A stretch of 64,000 bases of DNA from Bacteroidales bacterium (lineage in GTDB: Bacteria; Bacteroidota; Bacteroidia; Bacteroidales; PUMT01): positions 1,913 to 65,912 of the forward strand of contig SLCF01000008.1 of NCBI GenBank assembly GCA_007125955.1, given 5' to 3'. A model generated the notes under the pieces. The model worked only from the letters and a program-made list of their open reading frames with translations. It was not told the origin of the DNA and did no database searches. Below, in pieces: positions 1-15,526 of this stretch (positions within the stretch are counted from its first letter, which is position 1; every line of letters begins with the position of its first letter). The position numbers and the translations under genes were made by a program.

Positions 1-2119
1 AAGCCTCTTCAAGCCAGTCAATCTGATCATGTGTTGAATGTACCCTTGGCATATAGTGGTGTCCTAACGCCTGCAGCGGATATCGTCTGCTTTCCTCTCC
101 GAAAGGACTTTCCCATTCCTGTATATATTTCGGTACCGGAGGTATCTCATCCGGCTTGCCCATATCGTAAAGCTGTCTGGAAAAGATCTCAATCCTGCCG
201 GAAGGTGTGTTCAATGGATTGTTTTCCGGATCTCTCCGGAAATCTGCAAATGCCACTTTAGGATTCCTGATGGGGACTGAATAGACGCCCGTATTCTCTT
301 TTTGCAATTCATCAAGAGATGGAATTTCAGGGAAACGTGTATTACGGTAACGGTTTATTGCCCATTCTATCCATTCTTTTTCATCCCTCCCCTGTGTATA
401 CTCCTCAGCTATACCGAGTCTTTCAGAAATTTCGGCACAAATCTGGTAATCGCTCTTTGTTTCATATGGAGGATCGTATATTTTGGGATTGATTATGACC
501 TCATCGCCGTATTTCCATCCGTCCTGCAACCCCCACACCTCAAACTGCGTGCATACAGGCAGTACCAGGTCTGCGAACCTGCCGGAAGGTGTCATGAACT
601 GATCCTGAAACGCAATGAATTCAACAAGCGATTCATCTTTCAGTATTTTTGCTGAGCGGTTTACATCAGCATGCTGGTTGATAAGTATATTGGAAGCCAC
701 ACACCAGATAAGCCTGATGTTGTTTTCCAGTCTTTCAGCGCCTACCACTCCGTCTTCGGGGCCCATTTCCCTGCCCCTCAAAACCGCTTCAGTCCATAAA
801 AAGACAGGTATTCTTTCAGATACCGGATTCCTTCCTGTTGGAAAGACATTCCAGAAAGGCCCCCCGTCATCAGCCTGCAGTGCAATACCGCTTGCCCAGC
901 CACCCGGTATTCCGACATTCCCGGTTATTGCAGCCAGCACACATCCTCCCAGTACAGGCTGCTCACCGTAAGCCCTTCTTTGCATACCGTAACCCTGGTA
1001 AAGCATTGCGGGTTTGATTGATCCGTATTCGCGGGCTATGCGTGCTATTGTCCGGGCGGGAATACCCGTTATCTTCTCAGCCCATCCGGGTGTTTTGGGC
1101 GTCCCGTCAACTGTGCCAAAAATATAATCCCTGTAGCTCTCCTCATTTTCGAGTCCCTCAGGCATCTGCGAGCTATCGAAACCGGTGCAGCATCGCTGAA
1201 TAAAATCCTTGTCATGCAGCTCTTCCGAAATAATCACATAGGCCATTGCGCTCATAAGTGCGGTATCCGTACCCGGTCTGATAGGTACCCATTCATCGGC
1301 AAGAGAAACGGCACTCATTGTCATCCTGGGATCTATACATATCACCTTTGCACCGTTTTCACGGGCTTTCTTAACAAAATACTCACTGTTGGTACCATCG
1401 CGCATTTCTGCAGGGTTCCAGCCCCACATTATTATATATTTTGAATTGACCCAATCCTGTCGCTGGTTGCCGGTAACACCCGTACCATAAACATAGGGAG
1501 TTGCCCTGCTTATGCAGGCCCAGCTGTAGCTGTTGTAAAAACCGAGAGAACCGCCAAAAAGGTTCATCAGTCTGGCAGCAGTCTGCCTCCCGTTGGTCTG
1601 GTTATAGCTCCCCGTGCCATACGGAACGAGTATTGCGGAATTACCGTATTGCTCTTTTACTCTATTAAGTTGTGAGGCCAGAATATCAAGCGCTTCGTCC
1701 CATGTTATCCGCTCGAATTTGCCTTCGCCCCTTTCGCCGATCCGCTTCATGGGATACTTCAGCCTGTCGGGATGATATTGCCGGCGGCGGTAAGAACGGC
1801 CCCTTATGCAAGCCCTTAGTTGAGGATCGGTTATATCGTCATTGGGACGGTCGTCCGTCTCTATTCTTGTTATTTCCCCTTCCCTGATATGCAGCTTAAG
1901 AACACAGCGCCCACCACAATTATGTGAAGGGCATCCCGCCCTTACAATAACAGTACCGTCATCTTCCATGGTAACCGGGAGGCTTTTGCTCTCCTTTTCA
2001 CCCAGGCAACTGATCATGCCCCCGGAAGCAAGAAGTCCCCCGCCAAAAAGCGCACTTAGCCTTAGGAAGCACCTGCGGTCCATGGCCGATATAACCGGGC
2101 CGCCCTCTTTTCTGCTCAT
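1..2119 (-). CDS. DMSO-reductase-family molybdopterin oxidoreductase catalytic subunit (DmsA-like), Tat-exported; C-terminal part lies beyond the left edge
   Basis: Missing from the ORF track because the frame has no stop inside the window. Manual reverse-strand translation from the ATG (complement of 2117-2119) gives MSRKEGGPVISAMDRRCFLRLSALFGGG (twin-arginine signal). It continues with VRAGCPSHNCGGRCVLKLH and PQLRACIRGRS (N-terminal 4Fe-4S Cys group), then YHPDRLKYPMKRIGERGEGKFERITWDEAL. At the window edge it reads RYPLQALGHHYMPRVHSTHDQIDWLEEA. These blocks track E. coli DmsA as I recall it. Confidence 0.85.
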   Translation of the reverse strand, partial: MSRKEGGPVISAMDRRCFLRLSALFGGGLLASGGMISCLGEKESKSLPVTMEDDGTVIVRAGCPSHNCGGRCVLKLHIREGEITRIETDDRPNDDITDPQLRACIRGRSYRRRQYHPDRLKYPMKRIGERGEGKFERITWDEALDILASQLNRVKEQYGNSAILVPYGTGSYNQTNGRQTAARLMNLFGGSLGFYNSYSWACISRATPYVYGTGVTGNQRQDWVNSKYIIMWGWNPAEMRDGTNSEYFVKKARENGAKVICIDPRMTMSAVSLADEWVPIRPGTDTALMSAMAYVIISEELHDKDFIQRCCTGFDSSQMPEGLENEESYRDYIFGTVDGTPKTPGWAEKITGIPARTIARIAREYGSIKPAMLYQGYGMQRRAYGEQPVLGGCVLAAITGNVGIPGGWASGIALQADDGGPFWNVFPTGRNPVSERIPVFLWTEAVLRGREMGPEDGVVGAERLENNIRLIWCVASNILINQHADVNRSAKILKDESLVEFIAFQDQFMTPSGRFADLVLPVCTQFEVWGLQDGWKYGDEVIINPKIYDPPYETKSDYQICAEISERLGIAEEYTQGRDEKEWIEWAINRYRNTRFPEIPSLDELQKENTGVYSVPIRNPKVAFADFRRDPENNPLNTPSGRIEIFSRQLYDMGKPDEIPPVPKYIQEWESPFGEESRRYPLQALGHHYMPRVHSTHDQIDWLEEA

Positions 2120-2299
2120 TTCTGAATAATTTTTCTGTAAAACCATCGAAAATATAACAAGATCACGCTAATATAATCAAAAATTTAAATATATATATGT
2201 CATTCCTTTTCAGCAATCCTTATTAAAAAAAATCATTCCGGTTATCCCGCTCTTCCGCTTCCAGGCGACACGCATGTAAGCCTTCAAATAAATGCAAAA

Positions 2300-3139
2300 C
2301 TAAGCAGGCTTCCTGCAGTGGAAAACACCCCATGTGAGGTTACCTTTTTCTCCTCCTTCAACCCAGTACTTTAAACCTTTTTTCATATTGGAAAGATATT
2401 CCTCTGAAACATCCCTTTGAAGCTCTTTCTCTTTTTCACTTGTTTTTTCCAGAACCATGGAATAGTGTTTCACGAGATGATCATGAAGATCAATATACCT
2501 CACCTTTTCAAGCCCGCATTCCCTGCACGCCTTATCATAATATTCCGGCGATCCGAGCGATGAGAGATTGATTCGCTCATATATGGGCTTAAGCTCTTGT
2601 TCATCACAATCGCCGGTCTGCATGGGGTCTGTGAAAATCATATCCCCTTCCGGCCTGAGAACCCTTACTGCTTCTGTGATAACCTTCTTCCTGTTACTGC
2701 TGTGCAGAATTGCATCCTGTGACCATACAATATCAAATGCATTTTCAATGAATGGTATCTCTTCAAAATTCCCGTCAACTATATCGATCAGGTCATCAAG
2801 CCCCTGTTCCCTGTTCATTTTTCTTCCCCTTTCGTTTTCTGTTTCACTTATATTCAGAACAGTAACATGGCAACCGTATGTTGCAGCAAGATAGCGGGCA
2901 CTGCCGCCAAAACCTCCCCCAAGATCTATTATCCTGGTGTTTTCATCAATGCTTGTGAAACTTGCCATTTCTCTAACGGTTCGGCGGCTTGCAGTAAAAA
3001 TGTCATCGTCTTTACTTATGTATATGCCCAGATGAAGATCTTCTCCACCCCAGACATGATAGTAAAAATTGTCAGCATCTTTGCTGTTGTAATAACTGCG
3101 GGCCGCTTCCGCATCTTTTGAATACTTTTTTTCACTCAT
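2300..3139 (-). CDS. SAM-dependent N-methyltransferase, sarcosine/dimethylglycine N-methyltransferase-like (glycine betaine-forming type)
   Basis: 279 aa. N-terminal block ARSYYNSKDADNFYYHVWGGEDLHLGIY, SAM motif I IIDLGGGFGGSARYL, WSQDAILHS, C-terminal GNLTWGVFHCRK. Length and blocks match halophile SDMT enzymes. Confidence 0.75.
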   Translation of the reverse strand: MSEKKYSKDAEAARSYYNSKDADNFYYHVWGGEDLHLGIYISKDDDIFTASRRTVREMASFTSIDENTRIIDLGGGFGGSARYLAATYGCHVTVLNISETENERGRKMNREQGLDDLIDIVDGNFEEIPFIENAFDIVWSQDAILHSSNRKKVITEAVRVLRPEGDMIFTDPMQTGDCDEQELKPIYERINLSSLGSPEYYDKACRECGLEKVRYIDLHDHLVKHYSMVLEKTSEKEKELQRDVSEEYLSNMKKGLKYWVEGGEKGNLTWGVFHCRKPA

Positions 3140-3241
3140 TGAGTCATCTTTTTTTATTCTTCAATCCGTTTATCTTATTAAGTCCGGAACTTGCATGCTT
3201 ACCAATCTCCGGGTAGAATCATTTAAATTACTTTGCATTAT

Positions 3242-4039
3242 TTAAAAATCCAGCTTCCCTTCCCTGTATGCATTCATATATTTTTCACAAAACTGATCTT
3301 TTCCAAGCAGCATTTCTGCAGCCAAAACATTTGCCATCATCTTGTTGTCCAGCGGGTTCATAATAGCAGAATCAAGGCCCCTTGTTATAGCCATAACCAT
3401 AAAAGCCCGGTTTGCAAATCCCCTTTTGGGAATTCCAAAGGAAATATTCGAGAGTCCGCATATTGTATGTATCCCCTCATATTTGGCATGAATGGCTTCG
3501 ACCGAATCAAGGAACTCCCTACCAAGATGGTCGCCTGAACCGATCGGCTGAACAAGCGGATCTACAAAAATATTCTCCAGCTTGATACCATTTTTTACCA
3601 GATTGTTTACCAGCCTGTCAGCTATCTTTAGCCTCTCTTCCTTTGTATAGGGCATCCCTTCGTCGCTCATGCAAAGTGCAATTATCTTGAAATCCGTACC
3701 CTTTATCACCGGGATTATGTTTTCATACCTCCCCTTTTCCAGTGAAATGGAGTTGATCATTGGTATTCCCTTGTGTACCTTAACAGCTTCTTCAATCACT
3801 GCAGGGTCAGGGGTGTCAATACAGCATGGTGCATCAACGTTTTCCTGTACTGTCTGTATGAGCCATTTCATGTAATCAGTTTCCTTTCCCACAAATATCC
3901 CTGCGTTGACATCAATGAAGTCGGCCCCGTTTTCATGCTGATCAAGGGCTACCTTTGCAATTGCATCATAGTTTTTTTCCCTGATCTCTTCCCTGATCTT
4001 TTTTCTGCTTGCGTTTATAAGTTCTCCTACTATTCGCAT
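3242..4039 (-). CDS. Pterin-binding methyltransferase (methyl-corrinoid:tetrahydrofolate methyltransferase; MetH Fol-module / MtgA / MtrH family)
   Basis: 265 aa. Blocks GELINASRKKIRE, GADFIDVNAG, PMINSISL and GLSNISFG are typical of the DHPS-like pterin-binding barrel. Its start lies 2 nt after the stop of the upstream DUF1638 gene. Confidence 0.8.
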   Translation of the reverse strand: MRIVGELINASRKKIREEIREKNYDAIAKVALDQHENGADFIDVNAGIFVGKETDYMKWLIQTVQENVDAPCCIDTPDPAVIEEAVKVHKGIPMINSISLEKGRYENIIPVIKGTDFKIIALCMSDEGMPYTKEERLKIADRLVNNLVKNGIKLENIFVDPLVQPIGSGDHLGREFLDSVEAIHAKYEGIHTICGLSNISFGIPKRGFANRAFMVMAITRGLDSAIMNPLDNKMMANVLAAEMLLGKDQFCEKYMNAYREGKLDF

Positions 4040-4041
4040 AT

Positions 4042-4731
4042 CTAATTCTCCTGTTTAAAAAAGTTTTTATAATTACTTGTCTGTTCGGGTTCAATATAAA
4101 CGAAATATTTACGGCTGTAAGGGCCGTAAAGTATCCTCCGGAAAAAGTTGTCGTTACCTTTAACCTCAAAATATTTTTTCCCCAGCACCCTTGCATTTTC
4201 CTTTGCCCTCTCCCTGTAGGGTGAAGGATCTTCACTCCCGGGATCAATATAACAAATGTATTTATAATTCTTCAGTTCCCATTCTATGGCCTCTTTTGCC
4301 ATTTCAGCCCCCACCCTTTGGGTGTATTCGTTTTCAAGAAGACCAAGCGGATCTTTTTGGTTTTCTATCCAGTTCTGCGTTAGATAGTACGTGCCCGGTC
4401 TCCTGGAGAAATGGGCATGATACCTTTCGGCACCACCCAGATAGAGGCTTATGCAATCGTGTACCCTTGGAATGTAAATTCCATTTTTCCCGGCAAGCAG
4501 ACCCGACACCCCATTTGAACACAATCCATATCCCAGAACTATAGTGTTTCCCTTTTCATTAAAACTGTCTATTCTTTCCTGCAACTCTTCCCTCATCTTA
4601 TCCGGATAACGGTGAAGATTCTGGGACATGTAATGCATACGGATGTTATCCTGATGCGGACCAAACCTTTCCAGTTCAGCTTTCAGGCTCCCGCAAGCTA
4701 TTATCACCTTATTTTCTGTTAAATTTCTCAA
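4042..4731 (-). CDS. DUF1638 domain protein (uncharacterised partner of corrinoid methyltransferase systems)
   Basis: 229 aa with IIACGSLKAEL, LGYGLCSNG and PRVHDCISLYLGG blocks that I associate with DUF1638. The only available start is TTG, which overlaps the TGA of the upstream gene (TTGA), suggesting translational coupling. Confidence 0.6.
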   Translation of the reverse strand: MRNLTENKVIIACGSLKAELERFGPHQDNIRMHYMSQNLHRYPDKMREELQERIDSFNEKGNTIVLGYGLCSNGVSGLLAGKNGIYIPRVHDCISLYLGGAERYHAHFSRRPGTYYLTQNWIENQKDPLGLLENEYTQRVGAEMAKEAIEWELKNYKYICYIDPGSEDPSPYRERAKENARVLGKKYFEVKGNDNFFRRILYGPYSRKYFVYIEPEQTSNYKNFFKQEN

Positions 4732-6722
4732 AGTGTAACGGAATTTTGATCTGACAATCTCGGATTACCCATTGCACGGGCAGTAAATCTTGTTAAAGAG
4801 CCTTCAACCTTTCTGTTTACCTCAACATAAGGTTCCGATGAACCGGAGTTGATAGCCGCTTCCCTGGCAAGGCTGTGTGAGATCTTTTGCGCATAATCGC
4901 ATGCATTTTCGTGATTATCAAAATTTTTAACCTTGCCGTCACATTTAACATTGTATGAAAATTTTCCCTCACTTTCCCTTATAAAGACGAGCGCTTCGGA
5001 CACTTCAGAAACAAATCCTGATACGGCACCTACTGCGTTTGCCACATCGGCATACTGGTGAGTCAGCAGCCTGGTTTTCAGCCTTTGGGCGACATCCCCC
5101 AGGAAATGCCTTGCAGGAGCTCCGGTGCCGGCAAGAGGCATGAGACTGTTGATCTCTACCGTCAAAAGGTCGCTTCCGGGATGGAGAAACTCTTTCAGCA
5201 TCCATTTGCCCCACTTACCGTCAACCTTGTCTGGCATAACTTTTTCCATATCATGGCGTGCAAGAAAGATCATTATCTCTTCCACCAATGTATCCTCTAT
5301 TTTGCGGAAAACCGATTCAATAAAATCTTTCTTCTCCATCCTGTAAAGACGGCATATTAATGAAGCTGCAATATCAGCAGCATCCCTGTCCCATAAACTT
5401 AGCCGCCCTGAAACATGCAGCAGGTCTGTAGGGTTTAGTGTGGAACACTCTATAAAACCACCCCTGATGAGCCCGTGGAGATTAAGATGAGCAGGATGAA
5501 AAACTTTTTCATCATCCATTATTTTACTTAACCTTAATGGTTTTGCAAGCTTTTCAACCAGTCTGAGCTGTTTTTCATTAAGGCCTTCAACTGTATGATC
5601 GTCAAGTTTCCTGTAGAGGTGCCAGTATTCCAGGTCGTATACACTTTTTACTGTATCCGGATTCTTTTTAATCTTCCTGAAATCCGACTGAACATTTGCG
5701 TAATGGCTGGCAATCTGGGATAATGAGCGCACCCTTTCCGGACCGATACATATTTCACTTTTTTTGTCAAACCATATCCTGCTGTCACACCCGAGGCTGA
5801 CAGTGCGTATTTGAGCAGCCTCAACAGCCGTACGTGTGCCTCCTACCATGGCACCCTCCTCTGAAACGGCTACCATACCGTTGTTAATAAGGGCCATATC
5901 GGTTGTTGTACCTCCCATATCTACAACCAGGAAACTGCTTTTCCTGAGCAGAAAACGGGCACCGATCGCACTTGCAGCCGGACCTGACAGAACCGTTTCG
6001 ACCGGTTTATATTCCGCCTCCTTGTAGGGCATCAGGCTTCCATCTCCCCTTACAATCATCAGCGGGGCTTTGATCCCCAGTTCGCTTAGTGATTGCCTGA
6101 CTGACCTTATAAAGTCCTGCATAACAGCAACCAGTGATGCATTAATGGATGCCGTAGCAGCCCTTTTGATTGAGTTCAGACGGCCTGATAACTGGTGACC
6201 CATCACTACGGGAAGATCGGATGCCTTCTTGATTATTTCCAGAGCTTCTTTTTCATGTGAGGTATTCAGCGGACTGAAGTATGAAGAAAGAGCAATGGCC
6301 TCAATCTTTGACTTGTTCTTCCCTACCCATTCGAATATCCCTTTCCGGTCAAGTGGCTCAAGCTCATCTCCCTGGGCATTGTGTCCTCCGCTGAAATAAG
6401 CTATTTCAGAAGAAGCAAGCTCATCCCTGAGATCATAATTCTTAATCAGTTTCCTGTCATAACCTATAAGCAAAAGAGCAGTTTTGCCTGTTTTTCCCTC
6501 GGCAACTGAATTGGTGGCAAGTGTGCTGGATATCCCCACCAGTCTGACATTATGATCAGACTCCACACTGAGCTTTTCCAGAACTCTTACAACCCCTTGC
6601 TTCAAATCATTGTGGGTAGTCAGTGTTTTGGCTGCGGAAATTACTCTCCTGGTGGAATAATCCATCAGGACTCCATCTGTGAAAGTTCCGCCTGTATCAA
6701 TACCAATTACATACCGGTTCAT
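4728..6722 (-). CDS. Hydantoinase A / oxoprolinase-family ASKHA-fold ATPase (no HyuB partner in the window)
   Basis: 664 aa. Has the N-terminal VIGIDTGGTFTDGV and central LVVDMGGTTTD phosphate-binding loops of the hydantoinase/oxoprolinase family. No Cys-rich ferredoxin domain. Confidence 0.75.
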   Translation of the reverse strand: MNRYVIGIDTGGTFTDGVLMDYSTRRVISAAKTLTTHNDLKQGVVRVLEKLSVESDHNVRLVGISSTLATNSVAEGKTGKTALLLIGYDRKLIKNYDLRDELASSEIAYFSGGHNAQGDELEPLDRKGIFEWVGKNKSKIEAIALSSYFSPLNTSHEKEALEIIKKASDLPVVMGHQLSGRLNSIKRAATASINASLVAVMQDFIRSVRQSLSELGIKAPLMIVRGDGSLMPYKEAEYKPVETVLSGPAASAIGARFLLRKSSFLVVDMGGTTTDMALINNGMVAVSEEGAMVGGTRTAVEAAQIRTVSLGCDSRIWFDKKSEICIGPERVRSLSQIASHYANVQSDFRKIKKNPDTVKSVYDLEYWHLYRKLDDHTVEGLNEKQLRLVEKLAKPLRLSKIMDDEKVFHPAHLNLHGLIRGGFIECSTLNPTDLLHVSGRLSLWDRDAADIAASLICRLYRMEKKDFIESVFRKIEDTLVEEIMIFLARHDMEKVMPDKVDGKWGKWMLKEFLHPGSDLLTVEINSLMPLAGTGAPARHFLGDVAQRLKTRLLTHQYADVANAVGAVSGFVSEVSEALVFIRESEGKFSYNVKCDGKVKNFDNHENACDYAQKISHSLAREAAINSGSSEPYVEVNRKVEGSLTRFTARAMGNPRLSDQNSVTL

Positions 6723-6784
6723 ACCAGATCCCTTCTTTAGTATGATTCGGATCAGATCGCAGCAATTCTGAATCTTTTATGAAA

Positions 6785-8269
6785 TCACTCTTTTTTGTTA
6801 TCTGACTTACTGATCCTTTCTTCAGCTTCCCTTAGAATCTTCTCAATCTCGCTGTCTGCTTTCGCAGGCACTTTGCCACGGGGGCCTTCATGATTTTTGA
6901 TTAAACCCCTGGTTTTTTCAATTATCCTGTCCTTCATGGTTTTTTTGCCTTCTTCGACCCAACCCTCGTAGCTGTTTCGGTCCATAAGAGTGGGCATCCA
7001 GTAGGCGCGGAACCATTTCATAGTGTGTTCTTCATAAAGGTAATGACCTCCCGGCCCTACACTGTCGATCACATCGACACTGAGAGTTTCCCTGTTGACA
7101 TCAAAGCTTCTTTCAATAACCCTTGCCATTGATATCAACTCGTCATCCATTACTGTCTGGAAGATATCCCCTGTCAGCCCGCTTTCTGTGTAACCATTGT
7201 CATGAACGAAATTTGCACCGCTCATCATTGCTGCATTGATCGAAAGGCTTGCTTCCATAGCCGACTGCATATCCATCTTCTTGGTATCAGTGCAACCTGA
7301 CTGCGAATACATCGGAAGACCGCAATACTGAACTACTTCAGTCAATGCAGCGCTCAGAAGGCTAAGCTCAGGTGCCCCGTAAGAATAAACGGAATACCTC
7401 ATATCGAGTATCGACTGAACACCTCCTATGATGATGCATGTACCCGGATTTATAAGCTGTGCCGCTATTACTCCCACCATTGACTCGGAAAGGGCAACCA
7501 CCAGCTGCCCCGCATGCGAAGCAGGCACGGTGCCTCCGCCGATTGCGCACGGACTGTAAACCTGCGGGATACGCTCTTCGGCACAGTACATGCATTTATC
7601 TATGGCATGGAAATCGCTTACAAGAGGGGAGATAGGCTCACCATAAAAAATATAGTTGGGACGTTGTCTGAACTCCTCATCTCCTCCGGCCATTGCAACA
7701 GCCATTCTGTGTATGTCACGGCAGCCTTCCCTTGTGAACGACCAGCTCATTACGGGTGTAGTGGTATTTCGTATCATATCGGCAAACTCGTAAACATCTG
7801 CCAGTCCGTTAGTAACATCACTAATAGACCCAAGTGACTGCACAAATCCGATATTAGGCAAAGCATCGCATACGCGTGCCACAGTGGTTGCATCTTTCCG
7901 AAGGTATTTCCTTCTTTCCATGGTGTCGGTATCGATAAAGTTGGGTGGTGTCGGCCCCGGCCCGAAATAGCTGCGGTTCTTCTCAATCACTATTTTCTTT
8001 TCAGTTGTTCCGTCCCATGGAAAAACTTCGGTTACGGGAGGAACTGTAGAAAGGGCTTTCAGTATCACTTCAGGGGGAAAAAAGACTTTTATTCCATCAA
8101 CATGGCAACCGGCTTTTTTAAACAGATCCCTCGCCCCTTCATGATGAACATGAGCTCCCGTGTACTGAAGTGTACGCATCATTCCGTTGAAGATCTTTTG
8201 TTTCTGATCTTCTGAAAGAATTTGCAGGCGGGGACTCTCATATACTGTATAATTTGTTCTTACACTCAT
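6785..8269 (-). CDS. MttB-superfamily (trimethylamine methyltransferase family) corrinoid-dependent methyltransferase, non-pyrrolysine, paralog 2
   Basis: 494 aa uninterrupted ORF with no in-frame TAG. Blocks FYGEPISPL, YSVYSYGAPELSLLSAAL, YSQSGCTDTKKMD and HDNGY align with the other two paralogs. Confidence 0.85.
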   Translation of the reverse strand: MSVRTNYTVYESPRLQILSEDQKQKIFNGMMRTLQYTGAHVHHEGARDLFKKAGCHVDGIKVFFPPEVILKALSTVPPVTEVFPWDGTTEKKIVIEKNRSYFGPGPTPPNFIDTDTMERRKYLRKDATTVARVCDALPNIGFVQSLGSISDVTNGLADVYEFADMIRNTTTPVMSWSFTREGCRDIHRMAVAMAGGDEEFRQRPNYIFYGEPISPLVSDFHAIDKCMYCAEERIPQVYSPCAIGGGTVPASHAGQLVVALSESMVGVIAAQLINPGTCIIIGGVQSILDMRYSVYSYGAPELSLLSAALTEVVQYCGLPMYSQSGCTDTKKMDMQSAMEASLSINAAMMSGANFVHDNGYTESGLTGDIFQTVMDDELISMARVIERSFDVNRETLSVDVIDSVGPGGHYLYEEHTMKWFRAYWMPTLMDRNSYEGWVEEGKKTMKDRIIEKTRGLIKNHEGPRGKVPAKADSEIEKILREAEERISKSDNKKE

Positions 8270-8297
8270 AAGAATATCTCTTTTTTAAAATTGTGTT

Positions 8298-9746
8298 TTA
8301 CATGTGACGCTTGTCTGCATCTTCACATATTTTTTTCAGCTCCTTGTGCATTCCTTCATCAATCGGCTCAGGATTGTAATTCTCAAGAAGGTGATCTGTC
8401 CTTTCCCTTACCCTGTCACCCATTGTTTTGGAGCCGTTCTTTAGCCATGTTTCATAATCGCTGCGGTCCTGCAGCTCCGGCCTGAACCACTCTTTCCAGT
8501 GTTCATATGTGTGATCTGTTGTGACATACTCTCCCCCGGGGCCCTGTTTCTCTATCAACTCCAGTGCAAGGTGTTCGTCATCTGTGTTGATGCCCTTGCC
8601 GAACTGCTTCACCATCCCTATCATCTCCTGGTTGAGTACCAGGCTTTCGAGTGAAGCTGTAGTTCCGTGGTCAATATATCCCACATCATGTATAAGATTT
8701 GCGCCTGAAAGGTAAGAGTAGAAAAGGTTCATCATCTGCTCTGAAGCCGCCTGCTCGTCAAGCACTTTTGCATCGGTGCATCCGCCTGTGCTGAACATAA
8801 GCAGATTGAGCCATTTTGATATATCTGTGTTTGCAGCCGAAGCAAGAGAAAGCTCAGGTGCCCCGTAAGAGTATGTGGACTTCATCATATCGAGCAATGT
8901 AGTCACTCCTCCCATGATGAGGGGTGTACCCGGATTCTTCAGGTGGCACATAACTATAGCCACGAGCGTTTCGGCAAGAGATTGTACAAGCATTCCGGCA
9001 ATGGTTGCGGGTGCCGTAGCTCCTGAACTGGGACAGGGAGTATACATTGCAGGTATCTTCTTTTCTGCTGCAAAAAGAAGTTTTTCAACTGCAGTTGAAT
9101 CATTCTTGAGAGGAGAGATGGGTTCAATATAGGCAACAAAGAGAGGGTTGAGCCTGAACTCATCCTCACCGCCCTGAATTATACAGCCCATTCTCCATAG
9201 ATCTTCAAGCCCCTCACCGTCTACACTTGTCAGAACCATAGGCTTCGTGCACTGCTCAAGCATTGCCATGAACTGGTGACGGTCGTATGTCTGAGGATTA
9301 GGAGCATCTCCCACTATTCCGTGGGACATGTGGAAGTCGTAATGCGACAGTGCATCAACGAGCCTTGCAGCATCACTTACATCCTTGTAGGTAGTACGTC
9401 TCCTCTCTCCTGTTTTCCTGTCAATTGTAAAAGGAAGATCGGATCCTGTGCCGAATGCTACCATATCCTTCTGAAGATGAAGTGACCGCTTCCCGTTTCT
9501 GCCTCTGAGTGAAATTTTCCGGGGGTAAAATTTCAGAGCCTCTTCCACCATCGTGGTCGGTATCCTTACCCTGTTCCCCTCCACAACAGCATTACTGTTT
9601 TTGAACAACTCCAGGGCTCCGTCATGATAAATTACCCCTCCTGTTCGTTCGACAACTTCCAGAGCGGAATAATATATCTCTTCTATCTGGTCGTTTGAAA
9701 GAACCCTGAACCTGGTTGATTTGTTTACTGTTTGATTTATCTTCAT
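8298..9746 (-). CDS. MttB-superfamily corrinoid-dependent methyltransferase, non-pyrrolysine, paralog 1
   Basis: 482 aa uninterrupted ORF. Blocks AYIEPISPL, STYSYGAPELSLASAAN, FSTGGCTDAKVLDEQAA and HDVGY. Confidence 0.85.
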   Translation of the reverse strand: MKINQTVNKSTRFRVLSNDQIEEIYYSALEVVERTGGVIYHDGALELFKNSNAVVEGNRVRIPTTMVEEALKFYPRKISLRGRNGKRSLHLQKDMVAFGTGSDLPFTIDRKTGERRRTTYKDVSDAARLVDALSHYDFHMSHGIVGDAPNPQTYDRHQFMAMLEQCTKPMVLTSVDGEGLEDLWRMGCIIQGGEDEFRLNPLFVAYIEPISPLKNDSTAVEKLLFAAEKKIPAMYTPCPSSGATAPATIAGMLVQSLAETLVAIVMCHLKNPGTPLIMGGVTTLLDMMKSTYSYGAPELSLASAANTDISKWLNLLMFSTGGCTDAKVLDEQAASEQMMNLFYSYLSGANLIHDVGYIDHGTTASLESLVLNQEMIGMVKQFGKGINTDDEHLALELIEKQGPGGEYVTTDHTYEHWKEWFRPELQDRSDYETWLKNGSKTMGDRVRERTDHLLENYNPEPIDEGMHKELKKICEDADKRHM

Positions 9747-9776
9747 TAACCCTTTTTTATTGTATGAAACAAAAAG

Positions 9777-9811
9777 CCTTCACAGCTTCGTTTTTAATGA
9801 AGCTGTGAAGG
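9777..9811 (-). terminator. Intrinsic-terminator-like hairpin inside the cluster, between the corrinoid protein gene and mttB paralog 1
   Basis: Perfect 13-bp inverted repeat CCTTCACAGCTTC / GAAGCTGTGAAGG with a 9-nt loop. On the minus (coding) strand it is followed by CTTTTTGTTT. Confidence 0.45.
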
Positions 9812-9823
9812 GTTTGATAATTT

Positions 9824-10468
9824 TTAAGCCTTGTTCTGAAAATACTCTTTGGTAAGCTCAACAGCCGTTCCGGCGTTTGGAGCGTATATATCTGCCCCTA
9901 CCTCATCTGCAAACTCCTTGGTAACAGGAGCACCGCCAATAATAACAGCCATTTTTTCGCGTATACCAGCTTCTTTAAGTGAATTTATAACCTCACCCAT
10001 TCGGGGCATTGTGGTTGTGAGAAGAGCTGACATTCCCAGAAGGGTCGGTTTGTGTTCTATTGCAGCTTTAACGAAATTCTCATTAGGCTGGTCGATCCCG
10101 ATATTTATAACCTCATAGCCTGCGCCCTCAAACATCATGGCAGCCAGATCTTTCCCGATATCGTGCAGATCTCCTGCAACTGTCCCGATTACCATTTTAC
10201 CGGCATTACCCAGATCCTCCTTTGTAAGCCTCGGTCTGAGTATTTCCATTGCCCCGCTCATAGCTTTGGCGCAACGAAGAACTTCAGGCATATACATTTC
10301 ACCTTCCTTCCATTTCTTGCCGACTGCTTCCATCCCCGGCAGCAGTCCCTGATTCAGTAGTTCTGCGGGATTATTGTCAGCATCAAGGGCTTGCTGAATG
10401 ATCTCTTTTAACTCATCAACATTCCCAATTATTAAAGCTTCAGAAATTTTTCCAAAATCAATTGTCAT
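9824..10468 (-). CDS. Stand-alone corrinoid (cobalamin-binding) methyl-carrier protein (MtgC / MetH Cob-module type)
   Basis: Helical cap plus Rossmann-type B12-binding domain, with DxHxxG (GDLHDIGKD), SxL (SALLTTT) and GG (IIGGAP) motifs. I prefer the ATG at complement 10466-10468 over the TTG at 10474 used in the ORF track. Confidence 0.9.
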   Translation of the reverse strand: MTIDFGKISEALIIGNVDELKEIIQQALDADNNPAELLNQGLLPGMEAVGKKWKEGEMYMPEVLRCAKAMSGAMEILRPRLTKEDLGNAGKMVIGTVAGDLHDIGKDLAAMMFEGAGYEVINIGIDQPNENFVKAAIEHKPTLLGMSALLTTTMPRMGEVINSLKEAGIREKMAVIIGGAPVTKEFADEVGADIYAPNAGTAVELTKEYFQNKA

Positions 10469-10519
10469 GATCAACAGTTTTTTTGATTAATTATTGATAA
10501 TTTATTTTTAAGTTATCAT

Positions 10520-11443
10520 TTACGGTACATGAGGAGTAAAGCTCCCTTTATAACTCTTGTTTATGTCAGTATACTCTTCGGCAAGTGATTTGTAAATTTC
10601 AACCGCCGAACGGCTTTTATTGAGTGTGAAAAAGTGAAGACCCGGAGCATCGTTTTCGAGCAAATCGTTCGACTGTTCCACTGCATAATCGAGGCCGATT
10701 TTGTAAACCTCGTCAGGTCTGTCCAAAACAGCTTCCATCTTTTTGCGCAACCTGTCGGGAATATGCGCCCCGGATATTTCGGCAAATCTTTTGATCTGCC
10801 TGAAATCGGTTATAGGGAGGATCCCAGGTATAACACGGCATTTTATACCTGCTTTTGCAACCTTATCCATAAAACGGTAGTAGTAATCGTTTTTAAAGAA
10901 CATCTGTGTAACCAGAAAGTCAACTCCTGAATCTACCTTTAGCTTGAGGTTTTCAATATCTTTTGCAATTGAGGGCGCTTCAGGGTGCTTTTCGGGATAC
11001 GCTGCAGCACCAATGCAAAAATGACCGTAATTCTCATTAACGAACTTTATGAGATCACTGGCATAGTTCAATCCGTCGGGATTTTCGGGCAGAGGGCCCT
11101 TTGACCCTTCCGGTGGATCACCCCTGAGAAGCATTACATTTTCAATATTCCTGTCTGTAAAGGTGCGCATGTCGTATGCCACCTTTTCCTTTGTTGCATT
11201 TACACATGTATAGTGGGGAACACACGTAAATTTAAGCTTATTGTTGAACAGATCAACAACATCAAGTGTTTGGTCATTGGTTGTTCCTCCTGCCCCGCAT
11301 GTTTCAGTAACAAATGATGGATTCAGCTTCATAAGCTGTCCAGCATTTATGCCGAACTGAACAGCACCTTTTAAATTTTTCGGCGGGAAAAATTCAAAGG
11401 AGAATGTTCTTTTTTCTTTCTCAAATATTTCTGTAATTTTCAT
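10520..11443 (-). CDS. metF: 5,10-methylenetetrahydrofolate reductase
   Basis: Blocks RTFSFEFFPPKN, LLRGDPP and FLVTQMFF are typical of MTHFR. I chose the ATG giving MKITEIF (11443); the longer TTG-initiated ORF would overlap the upstream gene. Confidence 0.85.
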   Translation of the reverse strand: MKITEIFEKEKRTFSFEFFPPKNLKGAVQFGINAGQLMKLNPSFVTETCGAGGTTNDQTLDVVDLFNNKLKFTCVPHYTCVNATKEKVAYDMRTFTDRNIENVMLLRGDPPEGSKGPLPENPDGLNYASDLIKFVNENYGHFCIGAAAYPEKHPEAPSIAKDIENLKLKVDSGVDFLVTQMFFKNDYYYRFMDKVAKAGIKCRVIPGILPITDFRQIKRFAEISGAHIPDRLRKKMEAVLDRPDEVYKIGLDYAVEQSNDLLENDAPGLHFFTLNKSRSAVEIYKSLAEEYTDINKSYKGSFTPHVP

Positions 11444-11459
11444 AAATACGTTTTCTGAA

Positions 11460-13598
11460 TCAATCCTGCTGTTTTTGTTTTTCAACAGTCACATTGTAGT
11501 TTAGTACCGGACCGAGCCATTTTTCTGCTTCTTCAGTGGTTAGTCCCATTCTTTCGGCATAATCCTCTGCCTGGTCTCTCAGCACTTTTCCTATCCCAAA
11601 ATATTTTGCCTTTTTGTATCCAAAGTAAAATCCAGTTGTTGAGCTTGCCGGGTTCATGGCATAGCTTGATGTGAGTGCTATTCCCGTATTCTTTTCCCCT
11701 CCCAGAAGAGAGAAAATATGTTTTTTAAGCAAGTGGTCGGGACAAGACGGGTATCCGGGAGCCGGTCTGATACCTGCAAATTTTCCCTTAAGAAGGTCGT
11801 TTACACCGGTACTCTCATACCTGGAGTAGCCCCAATACTCTCTCCTTACCTTAAGGTGAAGTATCTCCGCAAAAGCTTCGGTAAGCCGGTCGCATACAAA
11901 ACGGAACATAATACTCTCATAATGATCGCCATTTTCAGAATAGCGGTCAACCGGTTTGTCTGCACCCAGTCCTGCAGTGGCCGAATAAGCCCCGATATAA
12001 TCCGGTATTCCTGAGGACAAGGGAGCTATATAATCGCTTAAGGAATACTGCCAGGGATTGTTTTTGTATATTTTTTGCTGCCGCAGCATGGGCAGAACCA
12101 TAAGCGGTTCCCGCCTGCTTTCATCGCTGAATACTATTATATCATCCCCTGCTGAATTTGCAGGAAAGAGCCCTACAACTCCCTTGGCTCTTACAAGTGA
12201 GTTTTCAATTATTTCATCCAGCATATGACCTGCCTCACGGAATATTCTGCGGGCTTCCCTCCCTTTGTCACCGCTTCTCATAATATCGGGATACTTACCT
12301 TTCATTCCCCAGCCGTTGAAGAAAGATGTCCAGTCTATACACCTTGCAATTTCTTCAAGCGGGTATTCATCTAGCACCTTCACCCCCAAAAATTGAGGCT
12401 TAACAGGTTTCTCCGATTCCCAGTCAGGTTTGTATCTTTTCTCTCTTGCTTCGGGGAGGGTGAAGTAGTTTCTCTTTTTGCTCCCTTTACCGGTAAGCAC
12501 AACTTTTTTGTCCGGTTGAAATTCTGCCTTGCTGTCGGGTTTTTCAAAAAGAGGATTGGATATACCAACACCTTTTGAACCGGGAGAAATACCTTCTTTT
12601 TCTCCGGGGGGTGGCTTTCGGGCAGGATACTTCCTTACAACTTCCGAAACAGCTGCAATGTGTTCGGGAGCAAAACCACAGCATCCGCCGACAATATTAA
12701 CAAGACCCATATCACACAATTCTTCCGTCATAGCTGCAACCAGTTCAGGGGTGAACGTGGTTTTGCTCTTTTCACCCGGCAGTTCAGAACACGGATGAAA
12801 GCTTGTGTAAAAAGGAAGATTGTCTGATAGCATTTTTAGATAGGATACTGCTCCTCCTGTTCCAGGAAAGCAGTTAATTCCGACGGAAAAAACAGAATAC
12901 CCGGAAAAAGCGCCGATAAAGTCACTTATAGTTTTTCCGGAAGGTAAAACCCCTTCCCTGTCAACAGTTGCTGATATCATTACAGGAATATCCCTTGAAA
13001 TGACCGCACTGTATTTTTCAATGGCATGAACTGCTGCTTTTGCAATAAGAGGATCTGTTACAGTTTCCACCAGAAAAAGATCAACCCCTCCGTCTGCCAG
13101 AGCTTTGACCTGCTTTTCATATGCAAGGAGATAAGTATTAAAAACTGCTTCATTTCCGGAACTGTTAACTGATGATTTGCCTTCACCTGCGGTTAAATGT
13201 GATGTCGGACCTATAACTCCGGCCACGAACCTGGGTCGGTTGCCGGAATGGTATTGTTTTGCTGTTTCCACAGCCAGGCGGGCTGACTGGTAATTCATCT
13301 CATATACCAGTCCCTGCATATTATAACCGGCCATGGAGATTTCGTTTGCATTAAAGGTGTTAGTCCCTATTATATTGGCTCCGGCATCGAGGTACCGGCA
13401 ATGAATATTCTTTATTATATGAGGCTGGGTTACAGAAAGAAGGTCATTATTCCCTTTTTGCTGATGCGGAAAATCGGCAAACCTGGAACCCCTGAAATCC
13501 GATTCGTTCATGTCCAATTTTTGGATCATGGTGCCCATTGCACCATCCAGTACCAGAATTTTGTTCTTTATATATGTTTTTAACTTCATTTGATGCAT
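11460..13598 (-). CDS. Truncated methionine synthase: homocysteine-binding (S-methyltransferase) domain fused to the MetH SAM-dependent reactivation domain, with no pterin or B12 modules
   Basis: 712 aa. The N-terminal ~330 aa have LVLDGAMGTMIQ and the zinc ligands VGINCF and VGGCCGF. The C-terminal ~330 aa have EEIARCIDWTSFFNGWGMKGKYPDI, GVVGLFPANS, DRLTEAFAEILH and GIRPAPGYPSCPDH, co-linear with the E. coli MetH activation domain as I recall it. Between them is only a ~60-aa low-complexity linker. Confidence 0.85.
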   Translation of the reverse strand: MHQMKLKTYIKNKILVLDGAMGTMIQKLDMNESDFRGSRFADFPHQQKGNNDLLSVTQPHIIKNIHCRYLDAGANIIGTNTFNANEISMAGYNMQGLVYEMNYQSARLAVETAKQYHSGNRPRFVAGVIGPTSHLTAGEGKSSVNSSGNEAVFNTYLLAYEKQVKALADGGVDLFLVETVTDPLIAKAAVHAIEKYSAVISRDIPVMISATVDREGVLPSGKTISDFIGAFSGYSVFSVGINCFPGTGGAVSYLKMLSDNLPFYTSFHPCSELPGEKSKTTFTPELVAAMTEELCDMGLVNIVGGCCGFAPEHIAAVSEVVRKYPARKPPPGEKEGISPGSKGVGISNPLFEKPDSKAEFQPDKKVVLTGKGSKKRNYFTLPEAREKRYKPDWESEKPVKPQFLGVKVLDEYPLEEIARCIDWTSFFNGWGMKGKYPDIMRSGDKGREARRIFREAGHMLDEIIENSLVRAKGVVGLFPANSAGDDIIVFSDESRREPLMVLPMLRQQKIYKNNPWQYSLSDYIAPLSSGIPDYIGAYSATAGLGADKPVDRYSENGDHYESIMFRFVCDRLTEAFAEILHLKVRREYWGYSRYESTGVNDLLKGKFAGIRPAPGYPSCPDHLLKKHIFSLLGGEKNTGIALTSSYAMNPASSTTGFYFGYKKAKYFGIGKVLRDQAEDYAERMGLTTEEAEKWLGPVLNYNVTVEKQKQQD

Positions 13599-13933
13599 AT
13601 CCCTATATTCATTATTCTTCCATCAAAAGCCCGCTTATTGGAACTATCAATGAATATAATCTATCTGCGCCACACAACATTTTATATAAAAACGGAATTT
13701 GCGTTTATTAACTTTACGGCCTGGCAGTTAAGCCAGATGACACCGGGAAGTAAATAATAAAACAAATAAACGCCTTCTTTAATCCGCAAGGTGTCAAAGA
13801 ACTCTTCAAAAGCAATTTGCCTGCCTTTCACCGATACCCGCCACCTCTTTAAGCAAATACAGAAATGACCGGGAAAGTTGTGCAACTTTTTAATTATCAA
13901 TACCTTCAAACACTTTTCTTACTTCAGCAAAAG

Positions 13934-13941
13934 CAAAGGTA
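13934..13941 (-). promoter_or_regulatory. Candidate Bacteroidota -7 promoter element (TAnnTTTG) for the metH-fragment/metF/corrinoid cluster
   Basis: The minus strand reads TACCTTTG. It lies just downstream of the serpin terminator and ~335 nt upstream of the ATG at 13598. Motif match only. Confidence 0.25.
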
Positions 13942-13955
13942 AGAAATAATGGCCA

Positions 13956-13992
13956 TATAAAAAAATGGCCTCTCCTTCAGAGCGGCCATTTT
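13956..13992 (-). terminator. Rho-independent terminator of the serpin gene
   Basis: The minus strand reads AAAATGGCC-13 nt loop-GGCCATTTT followed by additional Ts, ~30 nt after the serpin stop codon. Confidence 0.55.
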
Positions 13993-14019
13993 GTAAAATT
14001 ATATTCTGACAATTCAGGT

Positions 14020-15252: not shown

Positions 15253-15333
15253 GGCAATAAATTTCTGAGATTTACTTTTTAATATAAACGAATTAAAACT
15301 GCTAAAGGTTGTAAACGCTACCGGTTTATTGGC

Positions 15334-15375
15334 ACAAAAAACCCTTATTAGCCAATTCTCAGCCAACAAGGGTTT
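15334..15375 (-). terminator. Terminator-like hairpin immediately downstream of tRNA-Cys
   Basis: The minus strand reads AAACCCTT-21 nt loop-AAGGGTTT followed by TTTT. Confidence 0.45.
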
Positions 15376-15381
15376 CGCGGG

Positions 15382-15452
15382 AGGTCGCGGGCGGAATCGA
15401 ACCGCCGTAGAAGGTTTTGCAGACCTCTGCCTAGCCACTCGGCCACGCGACC
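15382..15452 (-). tRNA. tRNA-Cys (anticodon GCA)
   Basis: Reverse complement is GGTCGCGTGGCCGAGTGGCTAGGCAGAGGTCTGCAAAACCTTCTACGGCGGTTCGATTCCGCCCGCGACCT. Acceptor stem GGTCGCG/CGCGACC, anticodon stem GAGGT/ACCTT with loop CTGCAAA, T-arm GGCGG-TTCGATT-CCGCC, discriminator U as expected for Cys. CCA is not fully encoded. Confidence 0.9.
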
Positions 15453-15526
15453 ATCTTTTAATGATCTTTGCAAATTTAACAAAATTGACTGATTTTAAAA
15501 ATCCATTGATCAATTTAATCCACAGC

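Follow-up and report, generated by a model that had tools for sequence, protein, structure and literature searches.

We describe here a cluster of genes for corrinoid-dependent methyl transfer in a stretch of DNA of 64,000 nucleotides (nt) from a Bacteroidales bacterium (contig SLCF01000008.1; the whole stretch, 64 kb, is referred to below as the window). The listing of open reading frames (ORFs) places nine of them, all of the same direction, on the minus strand between positions 13598 and 2300. The first (11460-13598; 712 amino acids, aa) codes for a fusion of the homocysteine-binding (Hcy, PF02574) and S-adenosylmethionine (SAM, AdoMet) activation (PF02965) domains of methionine synthase, MetH. 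It is followed by genes for MetF (10520-11443, 307 aa from the ATG at 11443, in an ORF that extends to 11485; PF02219, TIGR00676); for a stand-alone corrinoid protein (9824-10468, with the ORF reaching 10474; 214-216 aa; PF02607 and PF02310); for two paralogs of the MttB superfamily (PF06253), called here A (8298-9746, 482 aa) and B (6785-8269, 494 aa); and for an ATPase of the ASKHA superfamily, similar to hydantoinase A, acetone carboxylase beta and caprolactamase alpha and referred to as the HyuA-type protein (4728-6722, 664 aa; PF05378 and PF01968). The last three genes specify a DUF1638 protein (4042-4731, 229 aa; PF07796), a stand-alone pterin-binding methyltetrahydrofolate:corrinoid methyltransferase of MtgA/AcsE type (3242-4039, 265 aa; PF00809, NF005719) and an SDMT-like SAM-dependent N-methyltransferase (2300-3139, 279 aa; NF041675, PDB 2O57). 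With starts supported by homologues, the gaps between consecutive genes are 16, 51, 77, 28, 62, -4, 2 and 102 nt. The original prediction, made from the sequence of the window, had described nine co-directional minus-strand genes spaced by -4 to 102 nt, and in this, as in all its domain calls, it agrees with the homologue-supported gene starts and with the Pfam and NCBIfam scans.

The fusion gene probably starts at 13589; the deposited gene call for the 712-aa product places its start three codons downstream of the ORF start. The cluster is real and conserved as a unit, because the same nine genes recur in identical order in two related loci, L001 and L002, with fusion proteins 87% and 72% identical to that of the window, and in identical copies on contigs SKRN01000126.1 and PWIS01000145.1 of metagenome-assembled genomes (MAGs). 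The flanks are also the same in L001 and L002, with a serpin gene upstream and a molybdenum oxidoreductase gene downstream. The nearest named homologues belong to MAGs of Bacteroidales and other Bacteroidota. A related locus from Balneolales bears the CSSed naming, as do MAGs from the sediment of Cock Soda Lake, and accession batches suggest a soda-lake origin of the window itself.

Between the operon and the upstream serpin gene lies an intergenic region of 421 nt (13599-14019, minus strand), presumed to contain the promoter and leader. No known riboswitch was found upstream of the operon: at the Rfam gathering threshold the whole window gives only chance-level matches to small RNAs, and the same is true at E<=1 of the leaders of the window and of related loci L009 and L015. 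The scan for sigma-70 promoters and terminators gave a terminator-like hairpin at 13970-13951, belonging to the serpin gene, but such a scan is not informative when the host is one of the Bacteroidota.

A rare remnant of methionine synthase

The Pfam scan detects PF02574 at residues 15-321 (239 bits) and PF02965 at residues 413-684 (348 bits) of the 712-aa protein, which thus consists of an Hcy-binding part (approximately 1-335), a Lys/Pro/Gly-rich linker of about 40-75 residues, and an AdoMet reactivation part (approximately 374-712). The zinc-ligand motifs GINC and GGCCG, with their three Cys ligands, are intact in the Hcy half, and the AdoMet motif RPAPGYPSCPDH, of the RxxxGY pattern, is intact in the activation half. 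When the fusion is aligned with full-length MetH, residues 3-335 (300 bits) and 893-1220 (356 bits) of the latter are covered, and the region of approximately 336-892, with the folate-binding (Fol), cap and cobalamin-binding (Cob) modules, is deleted. The DxHxxG motif is absent, and the domain scans, the MetH alignment and the motif check agree that no pterin- or B12-binding module is present on this polypeptide.

In a search of 5.8 billion proteins, the PF02574-PF02965 architecture was seen in only four protein clusters (100, 87, 72 and 54% identity), and the next matches were all five-domain MetH proteins of about 1220 aa from Ignavibacteria or Bacteroidota. Each half of the fusion is 44-58% identical to MetH from these two groups. 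Judged by its sequence, the fusion is a rare remnant of MetH that has lost the folate and cobalamin modules.

The original prediction regarded the cluster as a disassembled MetH with all four modules present on three polypeptides. This stands for the Hcy and AdoMet modules, which score 300 and 356 bits against MetH, and fails for the corrinoid and pterin proteins, which score 83 and 61 bits. The corrinoid protein contains the B12-binding cap and Rossmann domain, with the DxHxxG motif in the form DLHDIG, and matches NF047996 (MtgC_2) with 222 bits, under the cutoff of that model, and TIGR02370 with 203 bits, as against 83-149 bits to the Cob region of MetH. The pterin methyltransferase matches NF005719 with 344 bits (cutoff 259). 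MetH pieces were therefore rejected as an identity for these two proteins, which score far higher to MtgC-, methylamine-corrinoid- and AcsE/MtgA-type models. The corrinoid protein is best classified with the MtgC and methylamine-corrinoid type and the pterin protein with the MtgA/AcsE type, and only the Hcy and activation modules are of MetH descent, given the poor scores of the other two. MetF scores 314 bits with TIGR00676 (cutoff 294).

MttB paralogs with cysteine at the pyrrolysine position

PF06253 is matched by paralog A with 318 bits and by paralog B with 271 bits. Neither reading frame contains an in-frame stop or UAG, so that both proteins are of the non-pyrrolysine (non-Pyl) kind; Cys occupies the column of Pyl334, and the scores with TIGR02369, the model of Pyl-dependent MttB, are 398 (A) and 348 (B) bits, below its cutoff of 525. 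The two proteins are 37% identical to each other and each is 28-30% identical to MtgB; each belongs to an orthologous group that is kept across phyla.

The closest solved structure to both is MtgB of D. hafniense (246 bits for A, 203 for B). The structure of MtgB with bound betaine, together with mutagenesis (JBC 2026), identified Y97, R312, H348 and F356 as betaine-binding residues. The R312L variant was inactive, and R312 was reported to be conserved in MtgB, MtcB, MtpB, MthB and MtyB (JBC 2026). In the corresponding columns paralog A has S, F (F318), H and G, and paralog B has P, Y, H and G; three of the four residues, including the Arg, are missing in both. Canonical MtgB identity was accordingly rejected for A and B on these replacements (Y97 to S/P, R312 to F/Y, F356 to G).

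Both paralogs have a signature of their own instead. Paralog A has an FGTG motif and invariant C238, C323, H353, D354, Y235, Y294 and Y357, shared with B and absent from MtgB; the B counterparts of the Cys/Cys/His/Asp set are C241, C326, H356 and D357. When A is aligned with M. barkeri MttB, the Pyl334 column is occupied by C323, that of Tyr364 by H353 and that of Met249 by C238; these are the three residues that surround the trimethylamine-pyrrolysine site according to the paper on the M. barkeri MttB structure, which implicated Tyr364 in a proton shuttle. No exception to the Cys/Cys/His/Asp set occurs among 26 distinct A or B sequences taken from the loci, and the set is found in 118 of the 120 best homologues of a Firmicute A-type protein. 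The broader combination of Cys at the Pyl position, a His-Asp pair, and an aromatic residue at R312 occurs in about 60 of the 150 nearest representatives at 50% identity. Homologue 4yyc, from S. meliloti, resembles MtgB (Arg, Leu, His-Ala). Taken together, A and B are best described as a distinct, uncharacterised clade that is not MtgB-like, and their Cys/Cys/His/Asp centre may be a metal site or a proton relay at the pyrrolysine position. No paper on a Cys or zinc subfamily of MttB was found in the literature searched, which is not proof of absence.

These observations bear on the central proposal of the original prediction, namely that glycine betaine or another quaternary amine is the source from which the MttB paralogs could charge the corrinoid protein, and that the methyl group then passes to tetrahydrofolate (THF) or to homocysteine. 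This would be a B12-dependent analogue of BHMT, equivalent to MtgBCDE of Ruegeria. MtgB is the closest relative of known structure, all characterised non-Pyl members of the family use quaternary amines, and the MtgBCDE precedent works in vivo. On the other side, Y97, R312 and F356 are missing in both paralogs, and a single replacement of R312 inactivates MtgB. The canonical MtgB-like protein of the Firmicute and Desulfonema clusters is a separate third gene next to a BCCT transporter, and this operon contains none; moreover, demethylation of betaine would be futile beside a betaine-forming SDMT in the same operon. The betaine:homocysteine route is weakened by the loss of the betaine-binding residues, and we consider it improbable.

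A third non-Pyl member of the family is encoded in the window at 17881-19344 (plus strand, 487 aa), between the genes for GlnRS and thiamine synthesis. It scores 336 bits with PF06253 and 432 bits with TIGR02369 (cutoff 525), has Ala, Ala, Lys and Val at the signature positions, and possesses neither the betaine residues of MtgB nor the Cys pair.

HyuA-type ATPase and DUF1638

The HyuA-type protein is conserved over its full length of 664 aa and contains no Fe-S or Cys-rich motif. In the structure model (pLDDT 84) the full-length fold matches 5m45_B, 5svc_B, 5l9w and 6yra with TM-scores of 0.5-0.63; these are the subunits that bind nucleotide in N-methylhydantoinase, in the carboxylases of acetone and acetophenone, and in caprolactamase. 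RACo is matched only marginally (0.2). The annotated genes of the operon and of the related loci include no HyuB-type partner (PF02538). A role as a substitute for the RamA/RACE activase was considered and rejected, since the operons of Desulfobacterota have the HyuA-type protein together with a RACo-type activase and since its fold is HyuA-like. We infer for it an ATP-dependent step in connection with the A-type MttB, since these two genes form the most constant pairing.

In DUF1638, the residues C13, H40, C71, D92 and C93 are invariant in the alignment, and these five potential ligands suggest a metal, Fe-S or redox site. The structure model built from the single sequence was unusable (pLDDT 43). 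DUF1638 is probably an accessory factor of corrinoid activation or reactivation.

A mobile cassette in four phyla

One genome per species was scanned with a profile of the 664-aa protein, and 91 loci were annotated by phmmer. A core cassette of the corrinoid protein, MttB-A, MttB-B, the HyuA-type ATPase and the pterin methyltransferase recurs in Bacteroidota, Desulfobacterota, Hydrogenedentota and Firmicutes, and DUF1638 is added to it in the versions linked to SDMT. In the annotated loci, all HyuA homologues of at least 47% identity are located in or beside the order corrinoid protein, MttB-A, MttB-B, HyuA-type protein, other genes if any, DUF1638, pterin methyltransferase, wherever the contig reaches far enough, and these cassettes always have an SDMT orthologue attached. 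The cassette is an old, mobile unit of at least four phyla.

Among Firmicutes, Desulfosporosinus orientis DSM 765 and Fuchsiella alkaliacetigena have genes for a sigma54 activator, the corrinoid protein, B-like and A-like MttB, the HyuA-type protein and the pterin protein. In Fuchsiella the cluster additionally encodes a BCCT transporter and, as a third member of the MttB family, a canonical MtgB-like protein that is 52% identical to D. hafniense MtgB. A Desulfonema locus (L011) likewise has a BCCT transporter and a canonical MtgB, plus an A-like MttB that has no Cys pair.

Further genes are found in or beside the cassettes. In Desulfobacterota, small ACT-domain (GcvR-like) and YbaK/ProX-like (tRNA_edit) genes recur (L018 12020-12556, L014 12011-12496, L011 4917-5408), and DUF1015 is repeatedly found upstream of the SDMT gene. 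In L009, two tandem, near-identical ORFs of 32 aa (MKQTMSDIIIEKR...) are found at 5237-5430, between the activation-domain gene and metF; they could be a repeat or an element similar to a leader peptide.

Linkage to SDMT and the SAM cycle

The SDMT-like and hydantoinase-like genes, originally treated as peripheral, turned out to accompany the cassette in the different phyla more constantly than any others. The SDMT-like protein of the window scores 369 bits with NF041675 (cutoff 550) and aligns over its full length with Galdieria SDMT (PDB 2O57, 234 bits). Orthologues in related loci score 410-455 bits with NF041675 and are 50-86% identical to the protein of the window. SDMT is found in the same operon as the cassette in Bacteroidota, Balneolales, Desulfobacterota and Hydrogenedentota. 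In Bacteroidota it is downstream of the cassette, with the pterin gene overlapped in the case of L012, and is followed by AhcY and MetK; its place in Desulfobacterota is upstream. In the Hydrogenedentota locus (L015) it is divergent and adjoins a true GSMT gene (NF051855, 493 bits, cutoff 350), the only one found: the window, L001-L014 and L016-L021 have none.

Other neighbours are likewise enzymes of one-carbon and SAM metabolism. MetF, AhcY and MetK flank the cassette in Bacteroidota, and ahcY and metK are the last two operon genes in distant relatives. SerA is downstream in five loci of Desulfobacterota (L014, L016, L017, L018 and L020), MetK is nearby in two (L018 and L019), and a PfkB kinase gene follows the cluster in L013 and L014, which represent two phyla. 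No SDMT-type locus has a BCCT transporter, a canonical MtgB or a sigma54 regulator.

A gene for AhcY (S-adenosylhomocysteine hydrolase) is also present in the window, at 48602-50020 (minus strand), about 35 kb from the operon. In L021, from a Balneolales soda-lake MAG, the SDMT gene is directly followed by genes for a BtuFCD-like ABC transporter (11972-14649; Peripla_BP_2, FecCD, ABC_tran), which suggests that corrinoid uptake is linked to that operon.

These neighbours could also be read as a split methionine synthase that serves the SAM cycle of SDMT-dependent betaine synthesis, with a Cys/His metal site by which A and B would act on a thiol or some other substrate that is not an amine. The operons hold MetF, MetK, AhcY, PfkB kinase and SDMT, i.e., all enzymes of the activated methyl cycle except for a complete methionine synthase. 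Cys2His-type sites are typical of thiol methyltransferases (MetH, MetE, MtaA). DUF1638 and a RACo-type activase, furthermore, are the accessory proteins that go with split MetH in Phaeobacter (PMC5764234). Yet methylation of homocysteine by A or B would leave no need to recruit a canonical Hcy domain, the Firmicute homologues sit with betaine transporters and MtgB rather than with methionine genes, and the two conserved paralogs would remain unaccounted for. We view this possibility as very improbable.

Corrinoid reactivation

The window contains no RamA or RACo activase, no BCCT transporter and no full-length MetH, and both the lack of an Fe-S activase and the lack of a transporter in the cluster had been correctly noted before. 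In L009 (Bacteroidota) and L021 (Balneolales), the operon starts with a stand-alone activation domain that is not joined to an Hcy domain. Six loci of Desulfobacterota have no activation domain; here a protein of 560-590 aa with Fer2, RACo-middle and RACo ASKHA domains is encoded between the HyuA-type gene and DUF1638, adjoined by the ACT-domain protein. The two solutions are never found together: RACo is present in the loci of Desulfobacterota, and the activation domain in the window, L001, L002, L009 and L021. L015 has neither; in L010, L012 and L013 the upstream part is cut off. Since the activation domain, stand-alone or fused, takes the place of RACo in this complementary distribution, MetH-style SAM-dependent reactivation, as originally suggested, is plausible for the versions in Bacteroidota and Balneolales.

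Proposed pathway and direction of methyl transfer

The interpretation that we favour, and hold somewhat short of probable, is that the operon specifies a hub that has a single corrinoid protein at its centre, serves methyl transfer on glycine, sarcosine, dimethylglycine and homocysteine, and feeds betaine synthesis. MetF would provide CH3-THF, and the pterin methyltransferase would exchange the methyl group between CH3-THF and the Co(I)/CH3-Co(III) forms of the corrinoid protein. MttB-A and MttB-B would move it back and forth between the corrinoid and those N-methylglycines that are not quaternary (dimethylglycine, sarcosine, glycine), with the Cys/Cys/His/Asp centre as a metal site or proton relay and with ATP-dependent assistance by the HyuA-type protein. 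The Hcy domain of the MetH remnant would take methyl groups from the same CH3-corrinoid to form methionine and, from it, SAM; the AdoMet domain of the remnant would repair Co(II) by reductive methylation, in place of the RACo/RamA activase of Desulfobacterota. SDMT would spend SAM on the uphill final step, from dimethylglycine to glycine betaine. The net direction would be biosynthetic: the three methyl groups of betaine would all come from CH3-THF via one corrinoid protein, and only the last via SAM.

The assignment of A and B to N-methylglycines is suggested by three lines of evidence. The partners of the cassette, SDMT and GSMT, act on glycine, sarcosine and dimethylglycine. Fuchsiella has A and B beside a canonical MtgB and a BCCT transporter, and strain DCMF ('Ca. 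Formimonas warabiya') and S. ovata, which are reported to carry HyuA-type clusters, use dimethylglycine and sarcosine. The His-Asp/Cys centre would fit acid-base or Lewis-acid activation of non-quaternary substrates, which quaternary amines do not need. The biosynthetic direction is favoured because a demethylase co-translated with a SAM-dependent methylase of sarcosine or dimethylglycine would be futile, and because no transporter or MtgB is present and MetF, SerA, MetK, AhcY and the kinase all supply methyl groups. Methyl-group transfer from CH3-Co(III) onto the nitrogen of an amine finds a precedent in the reaction of MtgA-type enzymes on N5 of THF. In its full form, this proposal amounts to corrinoid-dependent glycine betaine biosynthesis in energy-limited halophilic anaerobes, with A and B methylating glycine and sarcosine from CH3-THF, SDMT carrying out quaternisation and the MetH remnant regenerating SAM; so stated, it is possible but doubtful.

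The same cassette could run catabolically, stripping methyl groups from dimethylglycine, sarcosine or other non-quaternary substrates and passing them via the corrinoid to THF, with MetF working oxidatively, or to homocysteine; SDMT and the SAM-cycle genes would then be neighbours from betaine metabolism and not partners in the pathway. We regard this, too, as a doubtful though serious candidate. In Firmicutes, the genes homologous to those of A, B and the HyuA-type protein occur with sigma54 activators (D. orientis and Fuchsiella), and in Fuchsiella also with BCCT and canonical MtgB. To our knowledge, all characterised MT1 enzymes are physiologically demethylating. Clusters of betaine methyltransferase genes that contain a hydantoinase gene have been described in DCMF, Sporomusa ovata and 'Ca. 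Frackibacter' (Holland et al. 2022, PMC9768040), in distinction from the RACE-containing cluster type of A. woodii and D. hafniense. The proteins of the homologous DCMF cluster are strongly induced on betaine (PMC9768040), DCMF grows on dimethylglycine, and dimethylglycine and sarcosine are used by both DCMF and S. ovata. The protein with the strongest induction on betaine in R. pomeroyi is the MetF paralogue encoded beside mtgD; this paralogue has been proposed to oxidise CH3-THF (PMC12478193). Against catabolism, the SDMT gene of four phyla runs in the direction of the cassette and either follows at close spacing or overlaps it, and co-expression would create a futile cycle that burns SAM; the SDMT-type loci have no transporter, canonical MtgB or sigma54 regulator; and SerA, MetK, AhcY and PfkB kinase have no catabolic role.

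Several further points weigh against the hub that feeds betaine synthesis. The substrates of A and B and the direction of transfer are deduced from gene neighbours only, and we know of no corrinoid-dependent biosynthetic N-methylation of an amino acid. The Firmicute homologues are in evidently catabolic, betaine-induced clusters. L015 has GSMT, so that A and B are not needed there for making sarcosine, and GSMT may be encoded elsewhere in the other genomes with the cassette. The double-Cys form is confined to a small subclade (about 9 of the 150 nearest representatives at 50% identity), and many relatives have just one Cys, that of the Pyl position, or have Ala in its place, so that a metal site in A and B is tentative. 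In P0004, the most divergent fusion (54% identity; L003 2633-4735), the first zinc-ligand Cys is replaced by Ser (GIKS instead of GINC), and its comparison with the fusion of the window gives 69% identity for the activation half and 46% for the Hcy half. The loss of this ligand and the faster evolution of the Hcy half may indicate that the Hcy domain is under relaxed constraint. Its function is plausible for the fusion in the window and not secure across all relatives of the fusion.

Other genes of the window

The serpin gene directly upstream of the operon (PF00079, 395 bits; 14020-15250, minus strand) is kept in L001 and L002. Beyond it, at 15380-15452 on the same strand, is a gene for tRNA-Cys (GCA); a long TTG-started ORF at 14020-15513 overlaps the tRNA gene and is over-extended. 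Downstream, the gene for a molybdopterin oxidoreductase of the dimethyl sulfoxide (DMSO) reductase family, with a twin-arginine signal, begins 154-180 nt past the SDMT gene and is truncated by the end of the window (1-2120, minus strand). Its substrate could be trimethylamine N-oxide, DMSO or another compound, and in L001, L002, L005 and L006 the operon is likewise followed by this gene, with a product of about 807-810 aa. A gene for a protein similar to the large chain of ribonucleotide reductase (28633-31218, minus strand, 861 aa) would add a second user of cobalamin to the window if the enzyme is of the B12-dependent class II. The remainder of the window consists of housekeeping genes, without any for MetH, MetE-like proteins, RACo, GSMT, SerA or BCCT.

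Implications

MttB-A and MttB-B, together with the HyuA-type ATPase, are candidates for the long-missing anaerobic methyltransferases of dimethylglycine and sarcosine, and Cys at the Pyl position with the His-Asp pair is a candidate for a chemical solution that does without pyrrolysine. The textbook route to betaine consumes three SAM per molecule. Should the biosynthetic direction be true, two of three costly SAM cycles would be spared for each betaine made, which would change estimates of the cost of osmoadaptation, and the same enzymes working in reverse would explain the pyrrolysine-free demethylation of dimethylglycine and sarcosine in anaerobes such as Sporomusa. The fusion, for its part, illustrates that MetH has been dismantled in nature, with the Hcy and activation modules persisting as a rare fusion that must act in trans on a foreign corrinoid protein; the activation domain would replace an ATP-dependent Fe-S activase. 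The MtgBCDE concept of 2025 would thereby be extended to anaerobic Bacteroidota with different parts.

Comparison with known systems

The original prediction knew of no characterised system of this composition, but two precede it. Knock-outs in R. pomeroyi (Mausz et al. 2025, PMC12478193) showed that the corrinoid protein MtgC and the pterin methyltransferase MtgD are needed for methionine synthesis with MtgE, an Hcy module, and also for betaine demethylation with MtgB of the MttB family, and identified RamA and DUF1638 as reactivation factors. The split MetH of Phaeobacter inhibens and its genetic requirement for DUF1638 were reported by Price et al. 2018 (PMC5764234). A corrinoid protein common to MttB-type transfer and methionine synthesis is thus already published and, in view of this work, the central idea of the prediction is not new; the locus is a variant of the corrinoid methyltransferase and split-MetH theme. 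Not found in the literature searched are the Hcy-activation remnant of MetH, the pair of MttB paralogs with Cys at the pyrrolysine position and an associated HyuA-type ATPase, and the constant linkage to genes of betaine synthesis and the SAM cycle.

As in the MtgBCDE systems of Ruegeria and Phaeobacter, separate corrinoid and pterin proteins serve an MttB-family enzyme and an Hcy module, here a domain of the fusion, and DUF1638 as an accessory protein, an adjacent MetF paralogue and several MttB paralogs are present. Unlike in roseobacters, which have no PF02965 and have a RamA-like activase, the Hcy domain is fused to the AdoMet-activation domain, and the window has no RamA-like (ferredoxin plus DUF4445/RACo) activase. 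In further contrast to these systems, the HyuA-type ATPase and SDMT are present, all genes are in one operon, and the MttB paralogs are of another clade, with Cys at the Pyl position and without R312. The hosts also differ, being an anaerobic member of Bacteroidota, presumably from a soda lake, here and an aerobic marine Proteobacterium there.

With the HydA-type clusters of DCMF, S. ovata and 'Ca. Frackibacter' (PMC9768040) the operon shares the synteny of the corrinoid protein, MttB-family protein, hydantoinase-like protein of about 660 aa and pterin protein of 265 aa, and D. orientis and F. alkaliacetigena have this order with A- and B-type paralogs. The Firmicute clusters differ in having BCCT, a third, canonical MtgB and sigma54 regulators, and in having no SDMT, DUF1638, MetF or MetH remnant.

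The fusion resembles both five-domain MetH and Thermotoga-type MetH, which has a separate activation protein, in its Hcy zinc motifs and in the RPAPGYPxCPDH activation motif. Unlike in MetH, a low-complexity linker stands in place of the region of about 336-892, so that the two modules must work on the corrinoid protein in trans. In the related operons of L009 and L021 the activation domain is encoded alone. MtaB, the methanol:corrinoid methyltransferase, is a zinc-dependent MT1 enzyme with a TIM-barrel fold, in which zinc bound by Cys and Glu activates a substrate that has no pre-formed good leaving group. We propose, by analogy, that the Cys/Cys/His/Asp centre of A and B may play a role like that of the MtaB zinc, in a different family and with no claim of homology. 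Finally, the SDMT-like enzyme, the nearby SAM-cycle genes and, in L015, the pairing with a true GSMT are reminiscent of the GSMT/SDMT betaine pathway of halophiles; the difference from that pathway is that GSMT is missing from the window and most related loci, and that SDMT is embedded in a corrinoid methyltransferase operon.

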